Virus record (IMG/VR): IMGVR_UViG_2061766007_002377
Direction: 5' to 3' (one strand)
DNA: 20,000 nt
Origin: an uncultured virus (IMG/VR IMGVR_UViG_2061766007_002377)
Lineage: Duplodnaviria > Heunggongvirae > Uroviricota > Caudoviricetes
Below are positions 1,708-16,030 of the stretch, piece after piece (within the stretch, counting starts at the first letter, position 1; each line of letters starts with the position of its first letter). The notes under the pieces were generated by a model. It saw only the letters and a program-made list of their open reading frames with translations, searched no databases and was not told the origin of the DNA. Made by a program: the position numbers and the translations under genes.

Positions 1708-3158
1708 ATGGCATATACATATTCACTTGTTGTAAACGGAACAGACTACAATCTTGCAGAGTTTGTAGATTCTTCAACACTGTCTATTGTAAAGCCTTTC
1801 TGCTCCAAATCCAAAAAGAGCGGCAAAGGAACCATGAGCGTGACAATCAAAGGTGCGGCAAACAAAACTGCCTATCGCTCTTTCATGCAAGACCTTCTGA
1901 TTCATGCCACTCAGACAAAGCAGGTCAATGACTGTCCTTTGCGTGTCAGTTGTGACGGGACTGTTGTGTTTTCCGGCTACCTTGATAAATCCTGCATAGA
2001 CATCAAGAGCAAGAAGATTCCCGAATGGCTTGTTTTGGCAGGAATTGACAAAAGCCATCTTCTTGACCGCAAAATCCGCATAAACCGCTACTGGGAAAAT
2101 CAGAGCAGAAACACTATTATCAGCGACCTCTTTTCCGCCCTTTCAACAGAGTGCGGCTTGTCGCTTTCCGTTGCCTCAAGCGAGATTCCGAATACAGAAG
2201 TGGTAGGCAACTTCTGCGTAACCGAAAGCAAGGAACAAACCTACAGAGACGTAATTGATACCATTATTTTTGAGGCAATCGGTTACGTTCTTTTCTTTGA
2301 CCCCGCCTCAGATGCGTTCAGAATCAAGAGCATACCTACAAGCGTATCAGGTCTTTCCCCCAGGGAAGTAACATTCCTTATCGAGAACGGCCTTGTGTCA
2401 CGCAGTGTTATCTATGACAATGACGGCATACTTCTTTCCTATCCTACAATCGTGGAAAGGGCAAATACCAACGTGTATGCCGAGAACATAAACCTTTCTT
2501 TTGACGAGAACAACCGTGTTATCGGAGATACCGTCATTCCCGGAGAATACTTCCCTCACGATGCAGATGTGAAGGAAATCTATCAGACCTTCCGCCTTGC
2601 AGACAGACCGTATGTGTCCGGTGAAAGCCGTGTTGAGAATCAGGACCTTTCCCTGTTGTATGCAAAGAATGTCACAGTCAGCATACAGGCAAACCCGGCT
2701 CTGACTCTTGCCCCTGCCCTTCCCAATGTTCACTGGGACGGGACCGTTGAAATCTATCCTGATAAGGCAAGGGCAATCTATGTCAACAATGCCGTGGGAG
2801 AGAACAGCAACGTCACTGTTTTTGGTTACACCGCAACGGCAGTCTACATTGACTACTACAACAAAATCACCTACCCCAAGGCCTGTGCCAATCCGCAGGA
2901 ATACAAGGTGCAAACAATCACCGACCCAAACAAGGCCAAGGCTTTTGCAAACTGGCTGTACAACTCAAACAACTACGGCGCATCCACAAGCCAGTGGAGC
3001 GAGTACAACAGCAGTGCATATCTGGGAGAAGTGGTAAACGTAATTCACAAGGACACAGGCGTACAAATGCCTCATGTCATTGTGCAGATAACGGATGAGA
3101 GCATAGACGGCTCAAGAGTCCGCAAGAGCAACATTGTTGCCATATCCATTTACTCATG
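1708..3158 (+). CDS. Putative tail tip / baseplate hub protein; 3' end lost in the N gap
   Basis: GAGGT RBS before the ATG; beta-rich ORF between the TMP and the fibre; runs into Ns at 3159-3244. Confidence 0.5.
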
Positions 3159-3244: not shown

Positions 3245-6200
3245 CACATCCAAGGATGAGCTTATAGGCGGCACATGGCTTGATGAACTGCCTTCCACAT
3301 ACACAGGCTATGTCTGGTACAGAACAAAATACATCTACTCCAACGGAACCGTCACTTACTCGCAGTACGCTCACTATCTGACCACGGCAGAGATAGACGC
3401 TCCGTGGGTGCTGACTACGTTCTACGCCGTCTCTTCATCTAATGACTGGGAACAGGCAGACACAACACAGCCCCCGGTGCAGGGCGTGACATACTATGAG
3501 AGACTTCTTGACGGCTCTCTGAAAGAGGCAGATGTGTCCGATGGTTGGGTCACGGGCATCTCATATTATTTCATCCCGGACTGCACAGCATGGGGCAATT
3601 CTATTCCTTCTTCATGGAGACATGGGTTGTACGTCTGGACAAGGGACAATATCAACTACACGCTCAACGGCACAACGCAGCGCATGACTCCCGTGTTTTC
3701 GGCCTCTGCCACATCAGATGCAGAGAAAACCTGCAAGTTTGTAGTCACTCCGTCTTCCTACACATGGGCCAAGAACAAGAGAGCCGTGGATTCTGATTCC
3801 GTCATTGTCACATTCGGCTATGAGATTCAGGGTTACGGAGAGAGCGTGGAGCCTTTGATTACCGTTCCTTCCGGGTACGATATAGAGACAGACAACAACT
3901 CCATTAAGTTCAACAGTGCAATAACCTTGGACAGAATGGAAATATTTGTCAGCCTTGCACAGTTCCCGGACGTGACCCCTGTGAAAATAGTTCTGGAGAG
4001 CGTTGACGTCACGGACGAGCCTACATACCTTGGAATACTGAGTGCAATGCCGAGTGCGGACAATACCCGGTTTTCACGTTTCCTTGCAGGAGACCACTTT
4101 GTTGCCAACGGCATCACAGGTAAGACAGACCTCATGCCCTATGTATATGACGGTGTTTCTTGGGTTGCACCGAGCAGAAACGGCGTGTACGGCCCTATGG
4201 CCTACATCCAGATTCTGTACAACTGTGTCCATGACATATTCTCCAACGCACAGGACGTATATACGCTCTGCGGTACAGGGGCAACGGCACAGGAAGGGGT
4301 TTCATACTATCAGCAGATAGACGGAGTGTGGACTGGCGTTGTCGTGCGTACAGGAGAAGATGTATCTACCCTGTACACCAAGGGAACCAACGTGCCTTCT
4401 CAGGTGTTGGAATACTACAACTATCAGGCGGAGATTATCTCTGACTATGTAGCATCCAATGACATTCAGCTTGTCGAGCAGACTGACCCGGTAACAGGCA
4501 AGACCAAGGTAGGCAAGATAAGAAGCGCAGGCTATGAGAAGGGAACGGTCAAGAAGCTCATTGAAACAGCACAGGGCGGTCAGTCTCTTGCCTCTTACAA
4601 GCAGGGATTCTACGGAGACACTGACGGAAACTTTGAGGCCTTTGACGCATGGCTGTACAGAGCCAACATCTACAATGCGAACATTGTAGGAGAACTGCGC
4701 AATGACCTCTTTTTCACAAACCTTGAAGCCAAGGTCGGAGCGACATACACGCAAAGTACACTGACCAATGAATCATGGTCGGGAACCAAAGCTCTTGAGT
4801 CTGTCCGCACTGCTATCGGAAGCGGTAACGTGGAAAAGGTACTGAGCATGGGTGCGCACTATCCCACTCAGGGCAATCAGTACAGCCTTGGAATGTTGGT
4901 GGACAATCCGGCAAGGGCAGTAGAAGCGTCTGTCAATGCAGGGGCAACCTTCACATCTCCCATATTTACGGCCTTTACTGCAAGCCTTCCTTTGTTCAAC
5001 TCCGGCAACGTGCCTGTAAGCGGTGGAGATATCTACTACGGCAGTGTGCTGACCAACCGCAAGAGGTGGGCTATCTCATCCCTGTATGAGAATACCGATA
5101 TTACCGAGAACGTAATCAATGCAAGTGGTATCTCTTGGAACGGCACCAACCTTGGTTTTGCAAGGGTGACTAATCCTGAGGCAACGGCTGTTAACGGATA
5201 TTCTACGAGCCACAGTTCTGGTAACGACAGTCGTTATGACGATTCATGGAGTTTTACTATTCCTAATGGATTCAGAAATGCAACTATGAATTTCTCAGGA
5301 AATAGAAAGCAGGGCCGTCAAACTTCATGGTTCCAGACTTTATATCGTCAGGGTTCAATGAGAATTTCTATAAATGGGGCAAGTTCATATTATATTGGTG
5401 CAACGGAAAACGGTAGTGTTCCGTTTAGTAGCTCTCTCACAGTAAACGCAGGAGATACTATTACTGTTGCATGGGGCAATGCCGCAGGTAGAACGTCTAC
5501 AACAGACGAGGTATGGGGAAGTATCTCTATCTCTATTGCTGCTCAGACCTTTGCCGCTCAGGGAATGGATACAACGGGTTTCTACACCTTCACAACAACC
5601 ACACAGAACGGATATACCCGTGTTGACACAGCCATCAACCGCAACAACCATCCTATCTACTATCAGGAGAACAACACTGACACTTACTACGAAAAGGCAA
5701 CGGTAACGCTTTCCTCTCCCTCATGGAGCAGTGAGAATCATCTTCTGAGCGCAACGGTGAATTATACCTATGAGAAGTACCAGACAGGCTTGAACCTTCT
5801 TAACTCCACCGGAGAGAGACAGCAGACCGTCACCACAGGAGCGCACCCTGTCTCTGAATACTTTGACGTTACCTATGCCGGGACAGTGCGCTACAAGTCC
5901 GACACGGCACAGCACTATTGGCACATTAACAGTGCCGGAATACTGACAAGAAGTGCAACACAAGAAGAACCCGCAAAACAGATTGACAGTGCAAAGATAT
6001 TTGCCATTGACTCCTGTACGGCGTACTACAAACTCTTTGGGGACAACTCAAGGCGCAACATCACAGGCGTTACCGGAGTTATCTGGACAAATACTTCAAT
6101 CATCTTTGAAACAAGTAACGGCAACGTGATTGTCACAACCTCTGACTGGGTGGAAGAGTTCTATGTGAATCTTGTCTCGCAGTCCCAGAGAAGAGGAAAC

Positions 6201-7094
6201 TTTGCGGACACGATTCTGCCGATAATGGGAGAAGAAGACAGGAAAAAGCAAGACCCGGTTAAGGAAATAAATCTCGGCTCTGAGGAAAATCGTTTTGATG
6301 AAGGGTATCTAAAAAGGTTAGGCTCAGGTAATGTTCCCACGGAGATTGTTTATACCGAGAATCTCGGACAACTTGTCTCAGTTCCAGGCTCTTCTATTGC
6401 ATCCTTTGAGCCAAGCCTTGTTTACTATGAGTATGACTCTGCCAAGGATGAATATATTGCCACAACGGACAGCACTCCCAACAGCAGCAAGACCTACTAC
6501 AATGTTTATTCAGTGACTGATGCCTATGTTAAGAATCAGTGGACAGTGACCCCGGAAAAGATTTCCAAGAACGCAGGTGGTGGAAGAATCCCCGGCACTG
6601 TGTTCTGGTATGCAGGGTCAGCAAACGACATTCCTGAAGGAACGCTTTTGTGCAACGGCGCAACTGTGCTCATTGCGGACTATCAAAACCTCTTTGACGC
6701 AATAGGTACAACTTTCGGGGGAAATGGCACTACCAACTTCAAACTTCCTGACTTCTTCCATGCAACTGACCCGGACAACAGTACGGTCAGTACAGGCTTG
6801 TTCATCAGGGCCACAGACGGCAGTTCCTTGGGTGCTGTGGGTAGTAAACAGTATGATGCGATAAGAAACATTACTGGAGACTTCTCCCACCGTACAGACA
6901 ATGAGAGCATTCCTTTTGCAGGTGCTAATGGTGCATTTGCCCTTGACAACTATATATCGCACACCAATACCACAGGTATAGAATCAGGATATAACCGTTA
7001 TTTCAAAGTCACTTTCAACGCTTCAAGAATAGTCAGAACCTCTGTAGATAATCGGCCATACAATATGTCCTTATTACCCCTAATATGCTATTAA
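3245..7094 (+). CDS. Tail fibre / receptor-binding protein with tail-collar domain and exchangeable C-terminal tip; true start hidden by the N gap
   Basis: Open frame from the gap to TAA 7094. It has fibre-type repeats (GGTWLDELPSTYTGYVWYRTKYIYSNG; TTDSTPNSSKTYY), a collar motif PGTVFWYAG...EGTLLCNG...LFDAIGTTFGGNGTTNFKLPD (about 6588-6752) and the typical GSKQYDAIRNITG...FNASRIVRT...NRPYN fibre end. Confidence 0.88.
6862..6878 (+). repeat. Recombination site S1 (expression site inside the fibre gene)
   Basis: TAAGAAACATTACTGGA, read in frame as (I)RNITG. Confidence 0.92.
6864..7094 (+). other. Tip cassette 1 (currently expressed, 76 aa)
   Basis: RNITGDFSHRTDNESIPF...FNASRIVRTSVDNRPYNMSLLPLICY*, in frame with the fibre gene. 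Confidence 0.92.
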
Positions 7095-7334
7095 GGGGAG
7101 CATTGAAATATTATACGGGTGAATATCAAGACTATCTGCATGAGTTGACATAGGGTTGTCTGTAAAATTGCCATTATTGGCATTAGAAAATATTGTTTCC
7201 ATGTTTATATATCCGTAATTACCCGAACCAAACAAATAATTATAGGCATTCGTAATACTATGTTTCCACGAACCTATGCTTGTTGCACTTTGGCGATAAA
7301 CAAACAAACCAGTTGCACTTCCAGTAATGTTTCT
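7080..7334 (-). other. Silent tip cassette 2 (84 aa)
   Basis: RNITGSATGLFVYRQS...NPMSTHADSLDIHPYNISMLPLIAY*; open from S2 to TAG, no start codon before the site. Confidence 0.92.
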
Positions 7335-7336
7335 TA
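7320..7336 (-). repeat. Recombination site S2
   Basis: Exact reverse complement TCCAGTAATGTTTCTTA; its TAA is the stop of cassette 3. Confidence 0.92.
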
Positions 7337-7585
7337 ATATGCGATTAAAGGTAACAGCCCAATATTATATGGCCTATTTTCTAAGGCCGTGCGTACAATG
7401 CGAGACGCATCCATAACTATCCAGTTTAAGTGATTGGAAGAAGATGAAAAACGGTCATTTGTAGAATAAAAAGCCGTGTCTTGATGTATGGCGTACAAGG
7501 CTCCATCCCAGTTGCCGTTGTGCATGATTATACCACCACCAGAGACATCATCCCATGACGTGCGTATTTGTCCAGTAATGTTTCT
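7334..7585 (-). other. Silent tip cassette 3 (83 aa)
   Basis: RNITGQIRTSWDDVSGGG...MDASRIVRTALENRPYNIGLLPLIAY*. Confidence 0.92.
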
Positions 7586-7587
7586 TA
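7571..7587 (-). repeat. Recombination site S3
   Basis: Exact copy on the - strand; its TAA is the stop of the chaperone gene. Confidence 0.92.
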
Positions 7588-8256
7588 TGACTCTTCAATT
7601 TCTGAGAGATAATCGAATGGACTTTCTTCTTCACAGTTGTCCTCAACGGTTTCTGTTCGGAGGTGGTCCAGAGCCTCTTCTCCATACTCTGCCACAATTT
7701 GTGCTTTCAATTCATTGGCCTGTGCTTCCCACAGATTAAGGTTTGGTCTTTCCTGTGCAAGCCTCTGGAGTTCTGATTTGTAGAAGGCTTCCTTTTCTGG
7801 ATCAGAAGCATATCCGTTCTCAAACTCATAAAGTCTCCGGGCGTAATAGTCTGTGTCCTCAAGTTCTTTCTTGAGAGTTTCGTACTGCTCCTCAAGCTCT
7901 ACAACCTGATTGCAGATTTCCGGCTTGTCCATCTTCTCCCATTCTCTGTCGGCAGGCTTGTCTCCGAGGGTGGTCATATATTCCTCTTCAGCCCACCAGA
8001 ACTTCTCAGGGTTGTAGAAAGGCTTACCGCCTGAGTAGGTTCCTGTTTCGTCAAGGTGCTTGCGGTAGTCCGGTTTGATTACCCACTTTTCTCCGTCCCA
8101 ACAAACAGCCTCAAACTCACCCTTTTCAGGTGGTTCCATCCATGTGCAGTTTGCAGGGAGAAGAAACTCTCCTTCATGTTTGGGGTTTTCCTGTGCGTAT
8201 GCGGTTCCTGTGTATTCTCCGTTCTGTGCGTATCTGTAACAAGTTTTAATGGTCAT
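7585..8256 (-). CDS. Tail fibre assembly (Tfa-like) chaperone with coiled-coil C-terminal extension
   Basis: The N-terminus YRYAQNGEYTG...ENPKHEGEFLLPANCTWMEPP...WDGEKWVIKPDYRK matches the Tfa-like pattern; GAGGT RBS upstream; located among the fibre cassettes. Confidence 0.75.
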   Translation of the reverse strand: MTIKTCYRYAQNGEYTGTAYAQENPKHEGEFLLPANCTWMEPPEKGEFEAVCWDGEKWVIKPDYRKHLDETGTYSGGKPFYNPEKFWWAEEEYMTTLGDKPADREWEKMDKPEICNQVVELEEQYETLKKELEDTDYYARRLYEFENGYASDPEKEAFYKSELQRLAQERPNLNLWEAQANELKAQIVAEYGEEALDHLRTETVEDNCEEESPFDYLSEIEES

Positions 8257-8275
8257 GTTTGGTACCTCTAAATTG

Positions 8276-8281
8276 ATTATA
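8276..8281 (-). promoter_or_regulatory. Possible -10 box for the chaperone gene
   Basis: Perfect TATAAT on the - strand about 20 nt upstream of the ATG in an AT-rich spacer; no convincing -35 at 17 bp. Confidence 0.35.
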
Positions 8282-8314
8282 CAATTACTATTAAGATAAC
8301 TCTATATGCAAGGA

Positions 8315-8331
8315 TAAGAAACATTACTGGA
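8315..8331 (+). repeat. Recombination site S4
   Basis: Exact TAAGAAACATTACTGGA. Confidence 0.92.
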
Positions 8332-8532
8332 ACAATCAGGACATACCATGATACTTCATCAAATTATGCTTTTCCGACTGGAGCCTTGTATGCTGCATCA
8401 GGACAAACCAAAGGAAACAGTAATGCTTGGAATACATCATGGGATATTGGACTCGATGCTTCAAGAGTTGTGCCAACAGGGACAGACAACCATCCCTATA
8501 ATATGAAGTTATTACCCCTAATTGTCTATTAA
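8317..8532 (+). other. Silent tip cassette 4 (71 aa; not in the ORF track)
   Basis: Manual translation: RNITGTIRTYHDTSSNYAFPTGALYAASGQTKGNSNAWNTSWDIGLDASRVVPTGTDNHPYNMKLLPLIVY*. Confidence 0.92.
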
Positions 8533-8534
8533 AG

Positions 8535-8551
8535 TAAGAAACATTAGCGGT
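8535..8551 (+). repeat. Recombination site S5 (variant)
   Basis: TAAGAAACATTAGCGGT: first 12 nt identical, 14/17 overall. Confidence 0.85.
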
Positions 8552-8755
8552 TCATTCTATGGTGGTGCTAGGCGAAACGGCAATTCTAGTGACTATTTAG
8601 GGGCATTCACAGGAGCAACAAATTCTGGCGTTAAACTGACAACAGGTAGCAATGCCGATTTGGCAAAGTTTCTCTTTAACGCTTCTGGCTCTGTGCGTAC
8701 AGCCTCAGACAACCGTCCCTATAACATCTCATTGCTCCCCGTAATAAGTTACTAA
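8537..8755 (+). other. Silent tip cassette 5 (72 aa)
   Basis: RNISGSFYGGARRNG...FNASGSVRTASDNRPYNISLLPVISY*. Confidence 0.9.
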
Positions 8756-8769
8756 GAAACATTACTGGA
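8753..8769 (+). repeat. Recombination site S6
   Basis: Exact copy; its TAA is the stop of cassette 5. Confidence 0.92.
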
Positions 8770-8982
8770 GAGTGTGAATTTTCTTTTGTTTGGCCTTCAT
8801 TTGTTGGAGAACCTAATAGCGCAATTTATCTAATAGAAAGAGCTGTAGATAAGACAGCAGCTTCTGGCTCTGCCCTTGGGACTCGAAATGTGAGCATTGT
8901 TTTTAATGCCTCTCGTACAACAAGCACATCACCCGAAAACCGTCCATATAACATTTCTATGCTTCCTCTTATTCACTATTAA
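8755..8982 (+). other. Silent tip cassette 6 (75 aa; not in the ORF track)
   Basis: Manual translation: RNITGECEFSFVWPSFVGEPNSAIYLIERAVDKTAASGSALGTRNVSIVFNASRTTSTSPENRPYNISMLPLIHY*. Confidence 0.92.
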
Positions 8983-8996
8983 GAAACATTACTGGT
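8980..8996 (+). repeat. Recombination site S7
   Basis: TAAGAAACATTACTGGT (16/17); its TAA is the stop of cassette 6. Confidence 0.92.
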
Positions 8997-9251
8997 GTAA
9001 TGAATAAGACCAAGGGTGACAATATGTACCTTAACGCCCAAACTTACGAAATATCAACTAATGGCGTTTTATATATCTCGTCTTCACAATACGATACATG
9101 GGCATCAGGTACTGGCGGTGGAACAGTTGTGAAAGGAATTGGTATCAATGCAAACGCAGGAAGTACATCAAATAACCCAATGTCAGGCCACGCAGTTGGC
9201 CCAGATGTCCGTCCTTATAACATCTCAATGCTCCCGTTAATATGCTATTAA
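8982..9251 (+). other. Silent tip cassette 7 (89 aa)
   Basis: RNITGVMNKTKGDNMY...NPMSGHAVGPDVRPYNISMLPLICY*. Confidence 0.92.
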
Positions 9252-9491
9252 GGGCAACATCTTGATATTATACGGGTGGATGTCGCTTCCCGAAGCATGA
9301 CGATACATTGGGTTGCCATAAGACGAGGTATCAGCATTAGCATTAAGGTAAAGATATCTTCCAGCATGGTTTCCTGCGTTACTTGCAGCTGCCCCGTATG
9401 ATGCTGATGTATAGAAAGCCCCATTAAATCCGGTAGAAGAACCTGCTGCCTCCATAATAATCCATTTCTCTACACTTCCAGTAATGTTTCT
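9237..9491 (-). other. Silent tip cassette 8 (84 aa)
   Basis: RNITGSVEKWIIMEAAG...NPMYRHASGSDIHPYNIKMLPLIAY*. Confidence 0.92.
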
Positions 9492-9493
9492 TA
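9477..9493 (-). repeat. Recombination site S8 (distal boundary)
   Basis: Exact copy on the - strand, about 60 bp from the recombinase stop codon. Confidence 0.92.
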
Positions 9494-9552
9494 TCACCCA
9501 TATCTGTTTAACAAGCGAATCCTTATTAAACAAACTGCTGTCTTTTGTTTAA

Positions 9553-10329
9553 TCACCAATCCACCAACCTACTCATCCTCTTTGACACACTCTGCACAGT
9601 GACCCTGAGATACCTCAAAGTGGTCTGGATATTTCTGTGGCCTAAGAGGTCTTTCACCAAATAGATGTCCCGTGTCTTGGCATAAACCTTCCGTGCAAAG
9701 TACCGCCTCAGCTCATGCGGAGAAACCTTTGCCTTAATCCTTAACTTCTTCTGCAAGGTCTTGAGCTTGACCATGATGTAATTGTCCGGCCACAGCATGA
9801 TTTTCTCTGTGTTCTGACGGCCTTTCAATAGGGGAAGTACATCCTGTCTCATCATAAGCGGAAACCATACAGTCCTTGATTTGGTGCCTTTTCCGACAAT
9901 CTCTTTTCTGGTGCAGTTCCGCAGGTCTCCGACAGTCACCTGATATGACTCCGTGATACGCAGTCCTGTGCCGGAGAGAAGTCTGATTGCAACAAGCCAA
10001 TCTGTTTGCTCGGTGTTTGCTAGAAAGGTCAGTATCTTGCCGTATTCCTTATCCGTCAGCACGTTCTCTGCAAAGATAGGCTCCTGAATACGCACCAAGG
10101 GAATCTCAACATCAAGACCTTTGTATTTGGCGTACTTTCTGATTGCGTTCAGCCGGAGATTGACAGTCATGGGCTTATGGACCTGAAGGCACATCTGACG
10201 GTACAGATAGACATTCTCCGTTGTGACTTCCGGGAAGAAAGAGAAGTAATGAATCATTGATGAGGTGTAGGCTTGCACGGTGGACTCTGACAGTGCTTTG
10301 CTCTGAAGGTAGGTGGGGAAATCTGTCAT
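9553..10329 (-). CDS. Tyrosine recombinase (Xer/integrase family), probable shufflon invertase, 258 aa
   Basis: Full catalytic set: TGLRITE (R), GKGTKSR (K), HELRR (HxxR), LLGH (H), TTLRY (Y). N-terminal core-binding region LSESTVQAY...TVNLRLNAIRKY. AGGAG RBS before ATG 10329. Confidence 0.95.
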   Translation of the reverse strand: MTDFPTYLQSKALSESTVQAYTSSMIHYFSFFPEVTTENVYLYRQMCLQVHKPMTVNLRLNAIRKYAKYKGLDVEIPLVRIQEPIFAENVLTDKEYGKILTFLANTEQTDWLVAIRLLSGTGLRITESYQVTVGDLRNCTRKEIVGKGTKSRTVWFPLMMRQDVLPLLKGRQNTEKIMLWPDNYIMVKLKTLQKKLRIKAKVSPHELRRYFARKVYAKTRDIYLVKDLLGHRNIQTTLRYLRVTVQSVSKRMSRLVDW

Positions 10330-10461
10330 GGGGAGACTCCTGGAATAAAAAGATTGAAAGGCAGAAAAAAGCAATTAGGTTACTGCGCTGCCCTACTTTA
10401 TAATTAAACCAAAAGCACGGCTTTTTTCTGCATGACAGGGCCATGTCGTTGCGGATTTTCC

Positions 10462-11089: not shown

Positions 11090-11563
11090 ATGGAAAAGAA
11101 AACAATTCTTGATGTACTGGTAGCGTTTTTCGACAAATACGGCGTTACCCTTGCAATCGGACTTGTGGCCTGCATCTGCGTAGGTCTTCTGGTTGAAATC
11201 TTCAAAAAGAGTGCTTTCACGGCCCTTGAAAAGAAGGTTGAAGCAGACGAGAAGAAGAAAGCAAATGTGGCTGCAATCAAGGCAGTGTCTTCACTTGTCC
11301 TTGCCGGAATCCTGACAGCATTTTTCCTCGGATGTATTTGGAAGAGCGACCTTCCCAAGCTCGGAAACGGCGCAGTCCTTCCCATTCATTTCACAGTCAT
11401 GTATCTCTTGCAGATGGTCTTTGACTTGAAGAGTCTCAAGGGCATTGTTGACAGAATCCTTAACAGCTTTGAGAAATCTCCCAAAGAGAAGAAACCCAAG
11501 ATGAAGAAGGTTGTCACATGGGTTGAGGACACTGATTCGGATAAGGGAGATATTGTTCAGTGA
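11090..11563 (+). CDS. Putative holin (about 3 TM helices, charged C-tail)
   Basis: AGGAG RBS; three hydrophobic stretches; Lys/Asp-rich tail; lies upstream of the spanin-like pair. Confidence 0.55.
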   Translation: MEKKTILDVLVAFFDKYGVTLAIGLVACICVGLLVEIFKKSAFTALEKKVEADEKKKANVAAIKAVSSLVLAGILTAFFLGCIWKSDLPKLGNGAVLPIHFTVMYLLQMVFDLKSLKGIVDRILNSFEKSPKEKKPKMKKVVTWVEDTDSDKGDIVQ

Positions 11564-15607: not shown

Positions 15608-16030
15608 CTAATCACAGGGGTTTAACTTGCCTGTAACTTGCTCAGGGGTGTACAGCTTTATCTTCTGCCAAGCAACAAGATAAGGTTCCGTTTCATAATC
15701 ATTTACATGGTCAAACCAATGGCCTTCTTTCCATTCCAAACACATGTAGCATATCCCGTTTTCTTTTCTTCCCCACGGATGAAACGCTATAAGATACCAC
15801 CCTTCTTCTGTTGGTGTTCCTGTGTGCCAAGGATTAGACCGTCTATTCCATCTTTCGATTACTTTCTGTCTGTTCCACTCAAAAGTTTTTGTCATATTGA
15901 CATAAACGCTAACCTCAACTCCACATTCCTTGCATCTAACAACATTATAAATACCGGAAAAAGCATCGGATTCTTCTGTAAGATACGCTTCTCCACCACA
16001 GAAAGGACATGGCTTTAACTCTTCGCTCAT
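15608..16030 (-). CDS. Lar-family (restriction alleviation) zinc-finger protein with extra C-terminal domain
   Basis: ELKPCPFCGG...VRCKECG...IERWNRR, then WHTGTPTEEGWYL...VAWQ. Confidence 0.7.
   Translation of the reverse strand: MSEELKPCPFCGGEAYLTEESDAFSGIYNVVRCKECGVEVSVYVNMTKTFEWNRQKVIERWNRRSNPWHTGTPTEEGWYLIAFHPWGRKENGICYMCLEWKEGHWFDHVNDYETEPYLVAWQKIKLYTPEQVTGKLNPCD

Follow-up and report, generated by a model that had tools for sequence, protein, structure and literature searches.

A probable multiple-inversion switch for the receptor-binding tip of a tail fibre in an uncultured phage

Results

Sites and cassettes of the array

We analysed a 20,000-nucleotide stretch of DNA, called the window below, from an uncultured virus of the Caudoviricetes (IMG/VR record IMGVR_UViG_2061766007_002377). 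The region of interest is the end of a tail-fibre gene, which is followed by an array of short reading frames, each headed by the same short repeat, and by the gene of a small tyrosine recombinase (Table 1). An earlier note on this DNA, made from the sequence alone, had reported eight copies of a 17-bp site in this region. A pattern search recovered all of them (8/8) with 0 mismatches, at the same positions and on the same strands, and no further copy of the site was present elsewhere within the 20-kb window. The number of copies expected by chance was 0.03, and none of 200 shuffles (0/200) reached 8. All copies (8/8) agree in the initial 12 bp of the site and nearly agree in the following 5 bp, whereas the 5' flank is unconserved in 8/8. 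The 17-bp identity is also found at non-coding junctions, namely upstream of a chaperone-like gene that lies in the array and beside the recombinase gene. With respect to orientation, five cassettes are on the plus strand and three on the minus strand.

Each cassette frame begins with (I/L/V)RNI(T/S)G and finishes with PYNxxxLP(L/V)IxY followed by the stop codon (8/8). The lengths of cassettes 1 to 8 are 77, 85, 84, 72, 73, 76, 90 and 85 amino acids (aa), the first codon being counted; the frames of 71-89 aa described earlier thus become 72-90 codons, and all eight are open. The middles of the cassettes are 32-46% identical to that of cassette 1 in the alignment. A tip sub-type with the motif (N/D)AS(R/G)..(V/T).T..(D/E)N(R/H)PYN comprises cassettes 1, 3, 4, 5 and 6, and another, with NPM..HA..(S/P)D(I/V)(H/R)PYN, comprises cassettes 2, 7 and 8. 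For the open middles of the seven silent cassettes, the joint shuffle probability was 5e-13, and their two alternative frames contain 0-7 stops each. The cassettes are tightly packed: when they are in tandem, the stop codon is the TAA that opens the next site, and the convergent pairs 1/2 (7080-7094) and 7/8 (9237-9251) have their final 15 nt in common on opposite strands, because the codons of LIxY-stop are nearly self-complementary. A scan found no tRNA genes.

Table 1. Coordinates of the features at the locus (S1 to S8, sites; P0177, a related fibre protein; X3 and X5, metagenome runs)
Feature	Position	Strand	Basis
N-terminal part of the fibre protein	1708..3153	+	P0177 match 482/482
Constant tail-fibre part (readable portion), tail-collar domain at ~6594-6755	3246..6860	+	Pfam, PHROG
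Site starts	6862+, 7320-, 7571-, 8315+, 8535+, 8753+, 8980+, 9477-		
Cassette 1 with S1 (6862-6878); in the window, this tip is fused to the fibre	6861..7094	+	
Cassette 2 with S2 (7320-7336), silent; final 15 nt shared with the end of cassette 1 on the opposite strand	7080..7337	-	
Cassette 3 with S3 (7571-7587), silent; stop is the first 3 nt of S2	7334..7588	-	
Tail-fibre assembly (chaperone-like) gene, 223 aa; stop TAA is the first 3 nt of S3	7585..8256	-	
Cassette 4 with S4 (8315-8331), silent; fused to the fibre in the relative P0177	8314..8532	+	
Cassette 5 with S5 (8535-8551, GC/T variant), silent	8534..8755	+	
Cassette 6 with S6 (8753-8769), silent; adjoins the recombinase in runs X3 and X5	8752..8982	+	
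Cassette 7 with S7 (8980-8996), silent; end overlaps the end of cassette 8	8979..9251	+	
Cassette 8 with S8 (9477-9493), silent; fused to the constant part in run X5	9237..9494	-	
Xer-like tyrosine recombinase without arm-binding domain, 258 aa, presumed invertase	9553..10329	-	PF00589, PF02899

The fibre gene and the nature of its tips

The open reading frame (ORF) of the fibre (1312 aa) ends at 7094 and contains a Pfam Collar domain (PF07484) at aa 1147-1200 (E 7e-17); its constant part matches phrog_19618, a tail collar protein. Site S1 forms codons 1236-1241 of this ORF, 36 residues past the Collar match, and only cassette 1 is in frame with it, in agreement with the earlier description. 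In the relative P0177 (1788 aa), the ORF that starts at 1708 and the ORF that ends at 7094 correspond to one protein. The two are in different frames in the window, where their join falls inside an unreadable run of N. The middle of the shaft (window ~5150-5650, P0177 residues ~1170-1300) is strongly diverged from P0177 while its flanks are nearly identical; it forms a second mosaic module in the fibre gene, unrelated to the sites of the array.

We then asked what the tips are. The last 230 residues of the fibre were searched against 1.84 billion representative proteins, which gave 9,503 proteins at E up to 0.001, and 34 sequences were aligned, most of them matches that extend unbroken to the end of the protein. 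The motif DAIRNITG and a C-terminal FDAS.VVPT..ENRP.NI...PLI.Y are conserved in this alignment, with a variable part between them. The alignment profile matches the solved short tail fibre 9cuy (E 2e-30), the chain of which reads GDAIRNITG, and the receptor-binding domain of T4 gp12 (1ocy, E 5e-13), up to the C-terminus. An AlphaFold model had a pLDDT of 74 and its top Foldseek matches were gp12 chains (probability 0.99). The TM-scores were only ~0.3, as the model is of a single chain from what is an intertwined trimer. Such scores are too low to support fold claims alone, and the homology to gp12 therefore rests on the sequence profile. On that basis the tips correspond to the receptor-binding end found in short tail fibres of the T4 gp12 type, each cassette encoding the distal head together with the last strand returning to the collar. 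The crossover site falls in the codons of the widely conserved peptide DAIRNITG, at the exit of the collar; a cassette made of head and last strand, with its site in conserved collar-exit codons, accounts for the conservation of both cassette ends. T4 gp12 and the structures 9cuy/9mjn ("Short tail fiber") align with the fibre described here in the collar, in the DAIRNITG-type motif and in a C-terminal segment, ...RPxNI...I(K/Y). However, those fibres have a single fixed tip, whereas eight tips are available here.

The assembly gene and the recombinase

The array anatomy given in the earlier note holds for the sites, the cassettes and the recombinase, but a tail-fibre assembly gene within the array, between sites 3 and 4, had been overlooked. 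Residues 2-67 of its chaperone-like product match three PHROG families of tail-fibre or fibre-assembly proteins, phrog_1807, phrog_105 and phrog_7290 (E 7e-9 to 1e-5), and no Pfam or NCBIfam match was obtained for the protein. It is 34% identical (E 6e-26) to the product of an ORF at the same position in L120, a related locus that is described below. A TATAAT hexamer lies 20-25 nt ahead of its ATG, although we claim no promoter on this ground.

A distance of 59 bp separates the stop codon of the recombinase gene from site 8, close to the 60 bp or so noted before, and the R-K-HxxR-H-Y set of catalytic residues is intact. The protein matches PF00589 (E 8e-18) and also PF02899, that is, a catalytic and a SAM-like domain, and it ends 18 residues past Y240. 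The residues R124, K147/K150, H205, R208, H231 and Y240 are invariant across 21 aligned relatives. The best NCBIfam model was XerA, with 103 bits, under the cut-off of 220, and the best PDB matches were the XerC-like 4a8e and XerA 5hxy. Neither a serine recombinase nor another integrase was found among the 21 ORFs of the window that were scanned. At E up to 1e-10 the enzyme has 22 relatives in a large protein collection, and its closest matches in annotated phage records are only 29% identical. Most of these relatives (18/22) are on contigs of 5 kb or less; we considered this as a sign of assembly breaks and rejected it, most metagenome contigs being short.

Alternative orders in the inversion model and in relatives

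We modelled the array by explicit inversions between oppositely oriented sites, starting from the order in the window. The model reaches 13,440 orders, and it reproduces the earlier prediction that a single inversion suffices to bring cassette 2, 3 or 8 to the constant part, whereas cassettes 4-7 need two.

The order in the window was then compared with the contigs of four public runs (X1, X2, X3 and X5) from gut metagenomes, cattle gut where the animal is named. In each of the two runs of the probable source sample, one contig has the order of the window, covering 6047-9922 in X1 and 6198-9922 in X2. The independent cattle-gut run X5 is 90-95% identical to the window, and in one of its contigs 6697-6859 (+) continues into 9495-9364 (-), 18 letters being shared at the joint; the constant part is thereby fused in frame to cassette 8. 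A second X5 contig has the order cassette 2, site, cassette 6, site, recombinase. In X3, a contig joins 8330 to 9477 on opposite strands, again with 18 shared letters, so that the upstream region of the chaperone gene and site 4 are joined to cassette 8, and a loose end places the last recombinase codons beside cassette 6. The junctions of X3 and X5 are all pairs of an upstream unit and a cassette that the inversion model allows, and according to the model the junction set of each run is three or more inversions from the window state. Uncovered stretches in these two runs were not counted as missing cassettes. In both, the 59-bp spacer between the recombinase stop and site 8 (9494-9552) is missing, leaving ~5 nt from stop to site.

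Proteins tell a similar story. In P0177, more than 300 residues before the site (from residue 1424) are identical to the window fibre, and DAIRNITG is followed by cassette 4, with 2 residue differences. The related DNA, which the earlier note proposed to compare, is rearranged at the sites, with cassette 4 (P0177) and cassette 8 (X5) fused exactly there. The same constant end carries a ninth tip in P0026, and P0031 is a free-standing ORF resembling cassette 1. In P0027, from another metagenome, the module of collar, DAIRNITG and tip sits on a collagen-repeat shaft (PF01391); the shaft differs, and the module therefore moves between unrelated fibres.

Related loci

Three loci of a set of 121 (L120-L240) are informative. 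In L120, from the genome bin of a bird-gut spirochaete, a recombinase 38% identical to that of the window precedes eight sites, five plus and three minus, that share the core GAGACATTA, together with eight tips with the same end motif, including overlapping convergent pairs that share their last 15 nt (9738-9752 and 11157-11171). The L120 fibre contains a collar domain, the peptide at its site is DAIRDIT, and the stop of the chaperone ORF is inside a site there too. The stop codon of the L120 recombinase coincides with the start of a site. Judged from its sequence, L120 carries the same design of eight tips, chaperone and recombinase. L208 has one such tip beside a recombinase that is 58% identical, and these are the only two of the 121 loci with the tip end motif (2/121). 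In the window as in L120 and L208, the recombinase gene borders the array. The L207 enzyme is 53% identical and its site, CAAGAAACGCTATTA, is different but related, sharing AAGAAAC; the sites in L207 (4453-6239) are palindromic, 24 bp long, with 8-bp inverted arms around TCAAGAAA, and the four tips belong to a different family, beginning with RNAI. The comparison of the window, L120 and L207 therefore indicates that the sequence of the site varies with that of the enzyme, but that the site keeps its position in the protein.

Broader searches returned little. A blastn search of 6000-10400 against 50,697 phage records gave no match, and a search of IMG/VR with the constant part gave nothing above matches of 35-36%. 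With the recombinase as a single sequence, 11 IMG/VR stretches were matched, with no relative among them; the recombinase profile gave 9 IMG/VR loci at 24-30% identity, and the tip end motif occurs in none of these (0/9). The 15-nt core of the site matched 119 IMG/VR loci, with one match each, which we judged to be chance; an 11-mer of the site reaches at most 2 copies, in 3 of the 119 loci. Away from the array, a Lar-like restriction alleviation protein is encoded at 15608-16030 (-) (PF14354, E 6.5e-15; phrog_599), which supports the phage origin of the window.

Discussion

A proposed switch for the fibre tip

We propose that the locus is, very probably, a shufflon, in which multiple inversions would determine which receptor-binding tip the phage tail fibre carries. 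The evidence supports this reading, which the earlier note had also given. In this scenario, the small tyrosine recombinase would exchange strands between two oppositely oriented sites; the exchange would invert the intervening DNA and thereby join the constant part in frame to another tip. A single inversion would yield cassette 2, 3 or 8, and two inversions cassettes 4-7. The single chaperone encoded in the array may act on every tip, perhaps by way of the C-terminal segment, which is invariant among them. What the data show directly are the sites, the frames that stay open, the sequence homologies and the deviating junctions of relatives. We infer that the adjacent recombinase catalyses the exchange, that the tips are switched at some rate and that host range changes as a consequence.

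Several points weigh against this proposal. No alternative joints are listed in the X1 and X2 contigs of the probable source sample; contigs drop rare variants, and switching within a population is beyond the reach of four runs that offer contigs only. The X3 and X5 relatives are 90-95% identical to the window and uncovered at cassettes 4-5 and over the greater part of cassettes 1 and 7; given this divergence and these gaps, their junctions could be old, fixed rearrangements. As for P0177, its sample is possibly not independent of the window. Between 6500 and 10600, predicted promoters (7 found, 9.1 expected) and terminators (4 found, 3.5 expected) are at background. Finally, recombination between the five directly oriented sites could give deletions. 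The site described here resembles the sfx sites of the R64 shufflon, the one-armed form of which is believed to favour inversion over deletion, and the symmetric sites of L207, in a near relative of a system with asymmetric sites, could bear on how the choice between inversion and deletion is controlled. In R64, an inversion-only behaviour has been credited to the extra C-terminal domain of the recombinase Rci (PMC11852207), a domain that the 258-aa enzyme does not have.

One could imagine that the array is frozen, past inversions having built it, with recombinase and sites now inactive and the orders in relatives representing old fixed states. The single order in the contigs of the probable source sample would fit, as would the fact that relatives with other orders also differ in backbone and cassette content. 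We nevertheless consider this unlikely: the catalytic residues are all intact and invariant, the eight sites are exact over 12 bp, the seven silent frames have been kept open against a joint probability of 5e-13, and the constant end of P0177, identical over more than 300 residues and yet followed by another tip, argues for a recent switch. Still less probable, indeed very improbable, is that the recombinase is an integrase or has another role and that tips are swapped by homologous recombination or template switching at the DAIRNITG codons: this peptide is widely conserved, so that short DNA identity is possible without site function, and the 21 scanned ORFs offer no other integrase, but the 258-aa enzyme has no arm-binding domain, it sits at the array edge in three loci (window, L120, L208), enzymes of 38% and 53% identity come with altered sites (GAGACATTA and CAAGAAACGCTATTA, respectively), the 17-bp identity reaches non-coding junctions that are free of peptide constraint, and general recombination would usually need longer shared stretches than the 17-18 bp seen here.

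An additional role can be attached to the shufflon. Much as in an integron, tip cassettes may also pass between related phages at these sites, a possibility that we regard as tentative and rather doubtful. Cassette 6 is ~99% identical in X3 and X5, with 3 and 2 differences in 244 nt, whereas the differences elsewhere amount to 61 in 626 in the recombinase, 29 in 448 in the chaperone gene and 14 in 163 in the constant part (90-94% identical). This likeness could reflect recent lateral transfer or strong constraint. Together with the differing cassette sets held by relatives and the foreign shaft of P0027, it hints at cassette trade, in which case the single chaperone and the invariant C-terminal strand would make incoming tips compatible.

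If the locus acts as a shufflon, ~2.6 kb of DNA is enough to give a long fibre eight receptor specificities, the only part swapped being a gp12-type head of 70-90 residues, at a conserved peptide. Fibre shufflons driven by tyrosine recombinases would then reach beyond the prophages of Actinobacteria and include rumen phages as well as the genome bin of a bird-gut spirochaete. In practical terms, such loci break assemblies and blur host prediction in virome work, and for phage engineering the tips offer natural modules for swapping, being short and self-contained with fixed junctions.

Comparison with known systems

In the Gin, Cin and Min systems of Mu, P1 and p15B, inversion also changes the C-terminal part of the tail fibre, hence host range, and a fibre assembly gene is likewise found in the invertible DNA. 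In Mu, the assembly gene is in the G segment. The locus is not a system of this kind, as the enzyme class differs: Gin, Cin and Min are serine invertases (PMC6109161), whereas a tyrosine recombinase is present here, with one chaperone for eight tips.

The shufflon of R64 and other IncI plasmids resembles the proposed switch in its multiple inversions between many sites and in the swapping of the C-terminal tips of an adhesin, PilV (PMC11852207). Its sfx site has a variable left arm, a 7-bp core and a conserved right arm (PMC11852207), and is thus asymmetric, with a conserved core and one arm; the site here is similar in this respect, with 17 bp and a 5' flank that is unconserved in 8/8. The target, however, is a phage fibre and not a pilin, and the locus is not an Rci system, its enzyme being without the extra C-terminal domain. 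A survey of programmed inversions includes a PilV-tail-collar fusion as a target (PMC9881135), and collar-type tips have therefore already been seen in pilus shufflons.

The closest counterpart is the Rin shufflon, described in prophages of Bifidobacterium breve and B. longum (Mavrich et al. 2018, PMC6109161) and also in Eggerthella lenta prophages (PMC8778435). The earlier note did not recognise the present combination as described; as regards the kind of system this does not stand, the Rin shufflon being already a phage receptor-binding protein (RBP) shufflon with a small Xer-like tyrosine recombinase (PMC6109161). Rin consists of a constant RBP gene with an internal crossover site and five promoterless variable C-terminal cassettes, an 11-bp asymmetric repeat and an XerD-like tyrosine invertase without arm-binding domain, and its inversions were seen in reads (PMC6109161). 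Here too, a constant gene has one in-frame crossover site (S1), start-less variable C-terminal cassettes stand behind the same short repeat in both orientations, and the array is flanked by a recombinase with core-binding and catalytic domains and no arm-binding domain, the comparison being one of domain layout. Rin shows differing fusions across genomes; here, alternative fusions at the site are present in the relatives P0177, X5 and X3, and none was found in the contigs of the probable source sample. The differences are in the parts: the tips are of the gp12 collar/head type and not TP901-1-like or H-type lectins, there are eight cassettes instead of five, the site is 17 bp, within a conserved peptide motif, instead of 11 bp, a chaperone gene lies inside the array, and convergent cassettes overlap by 15 nt. 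Among the papers that a library search returned on the Rin shufflon and on phage RBP shufflons in metagenomes, none deals with a gp12-type or rumen shufflon, judged by title and abstract. The principle of tip switching is already known, and the locus is most likely a further example of the Rin-shufflon kind, well preserved and with some instructive details.

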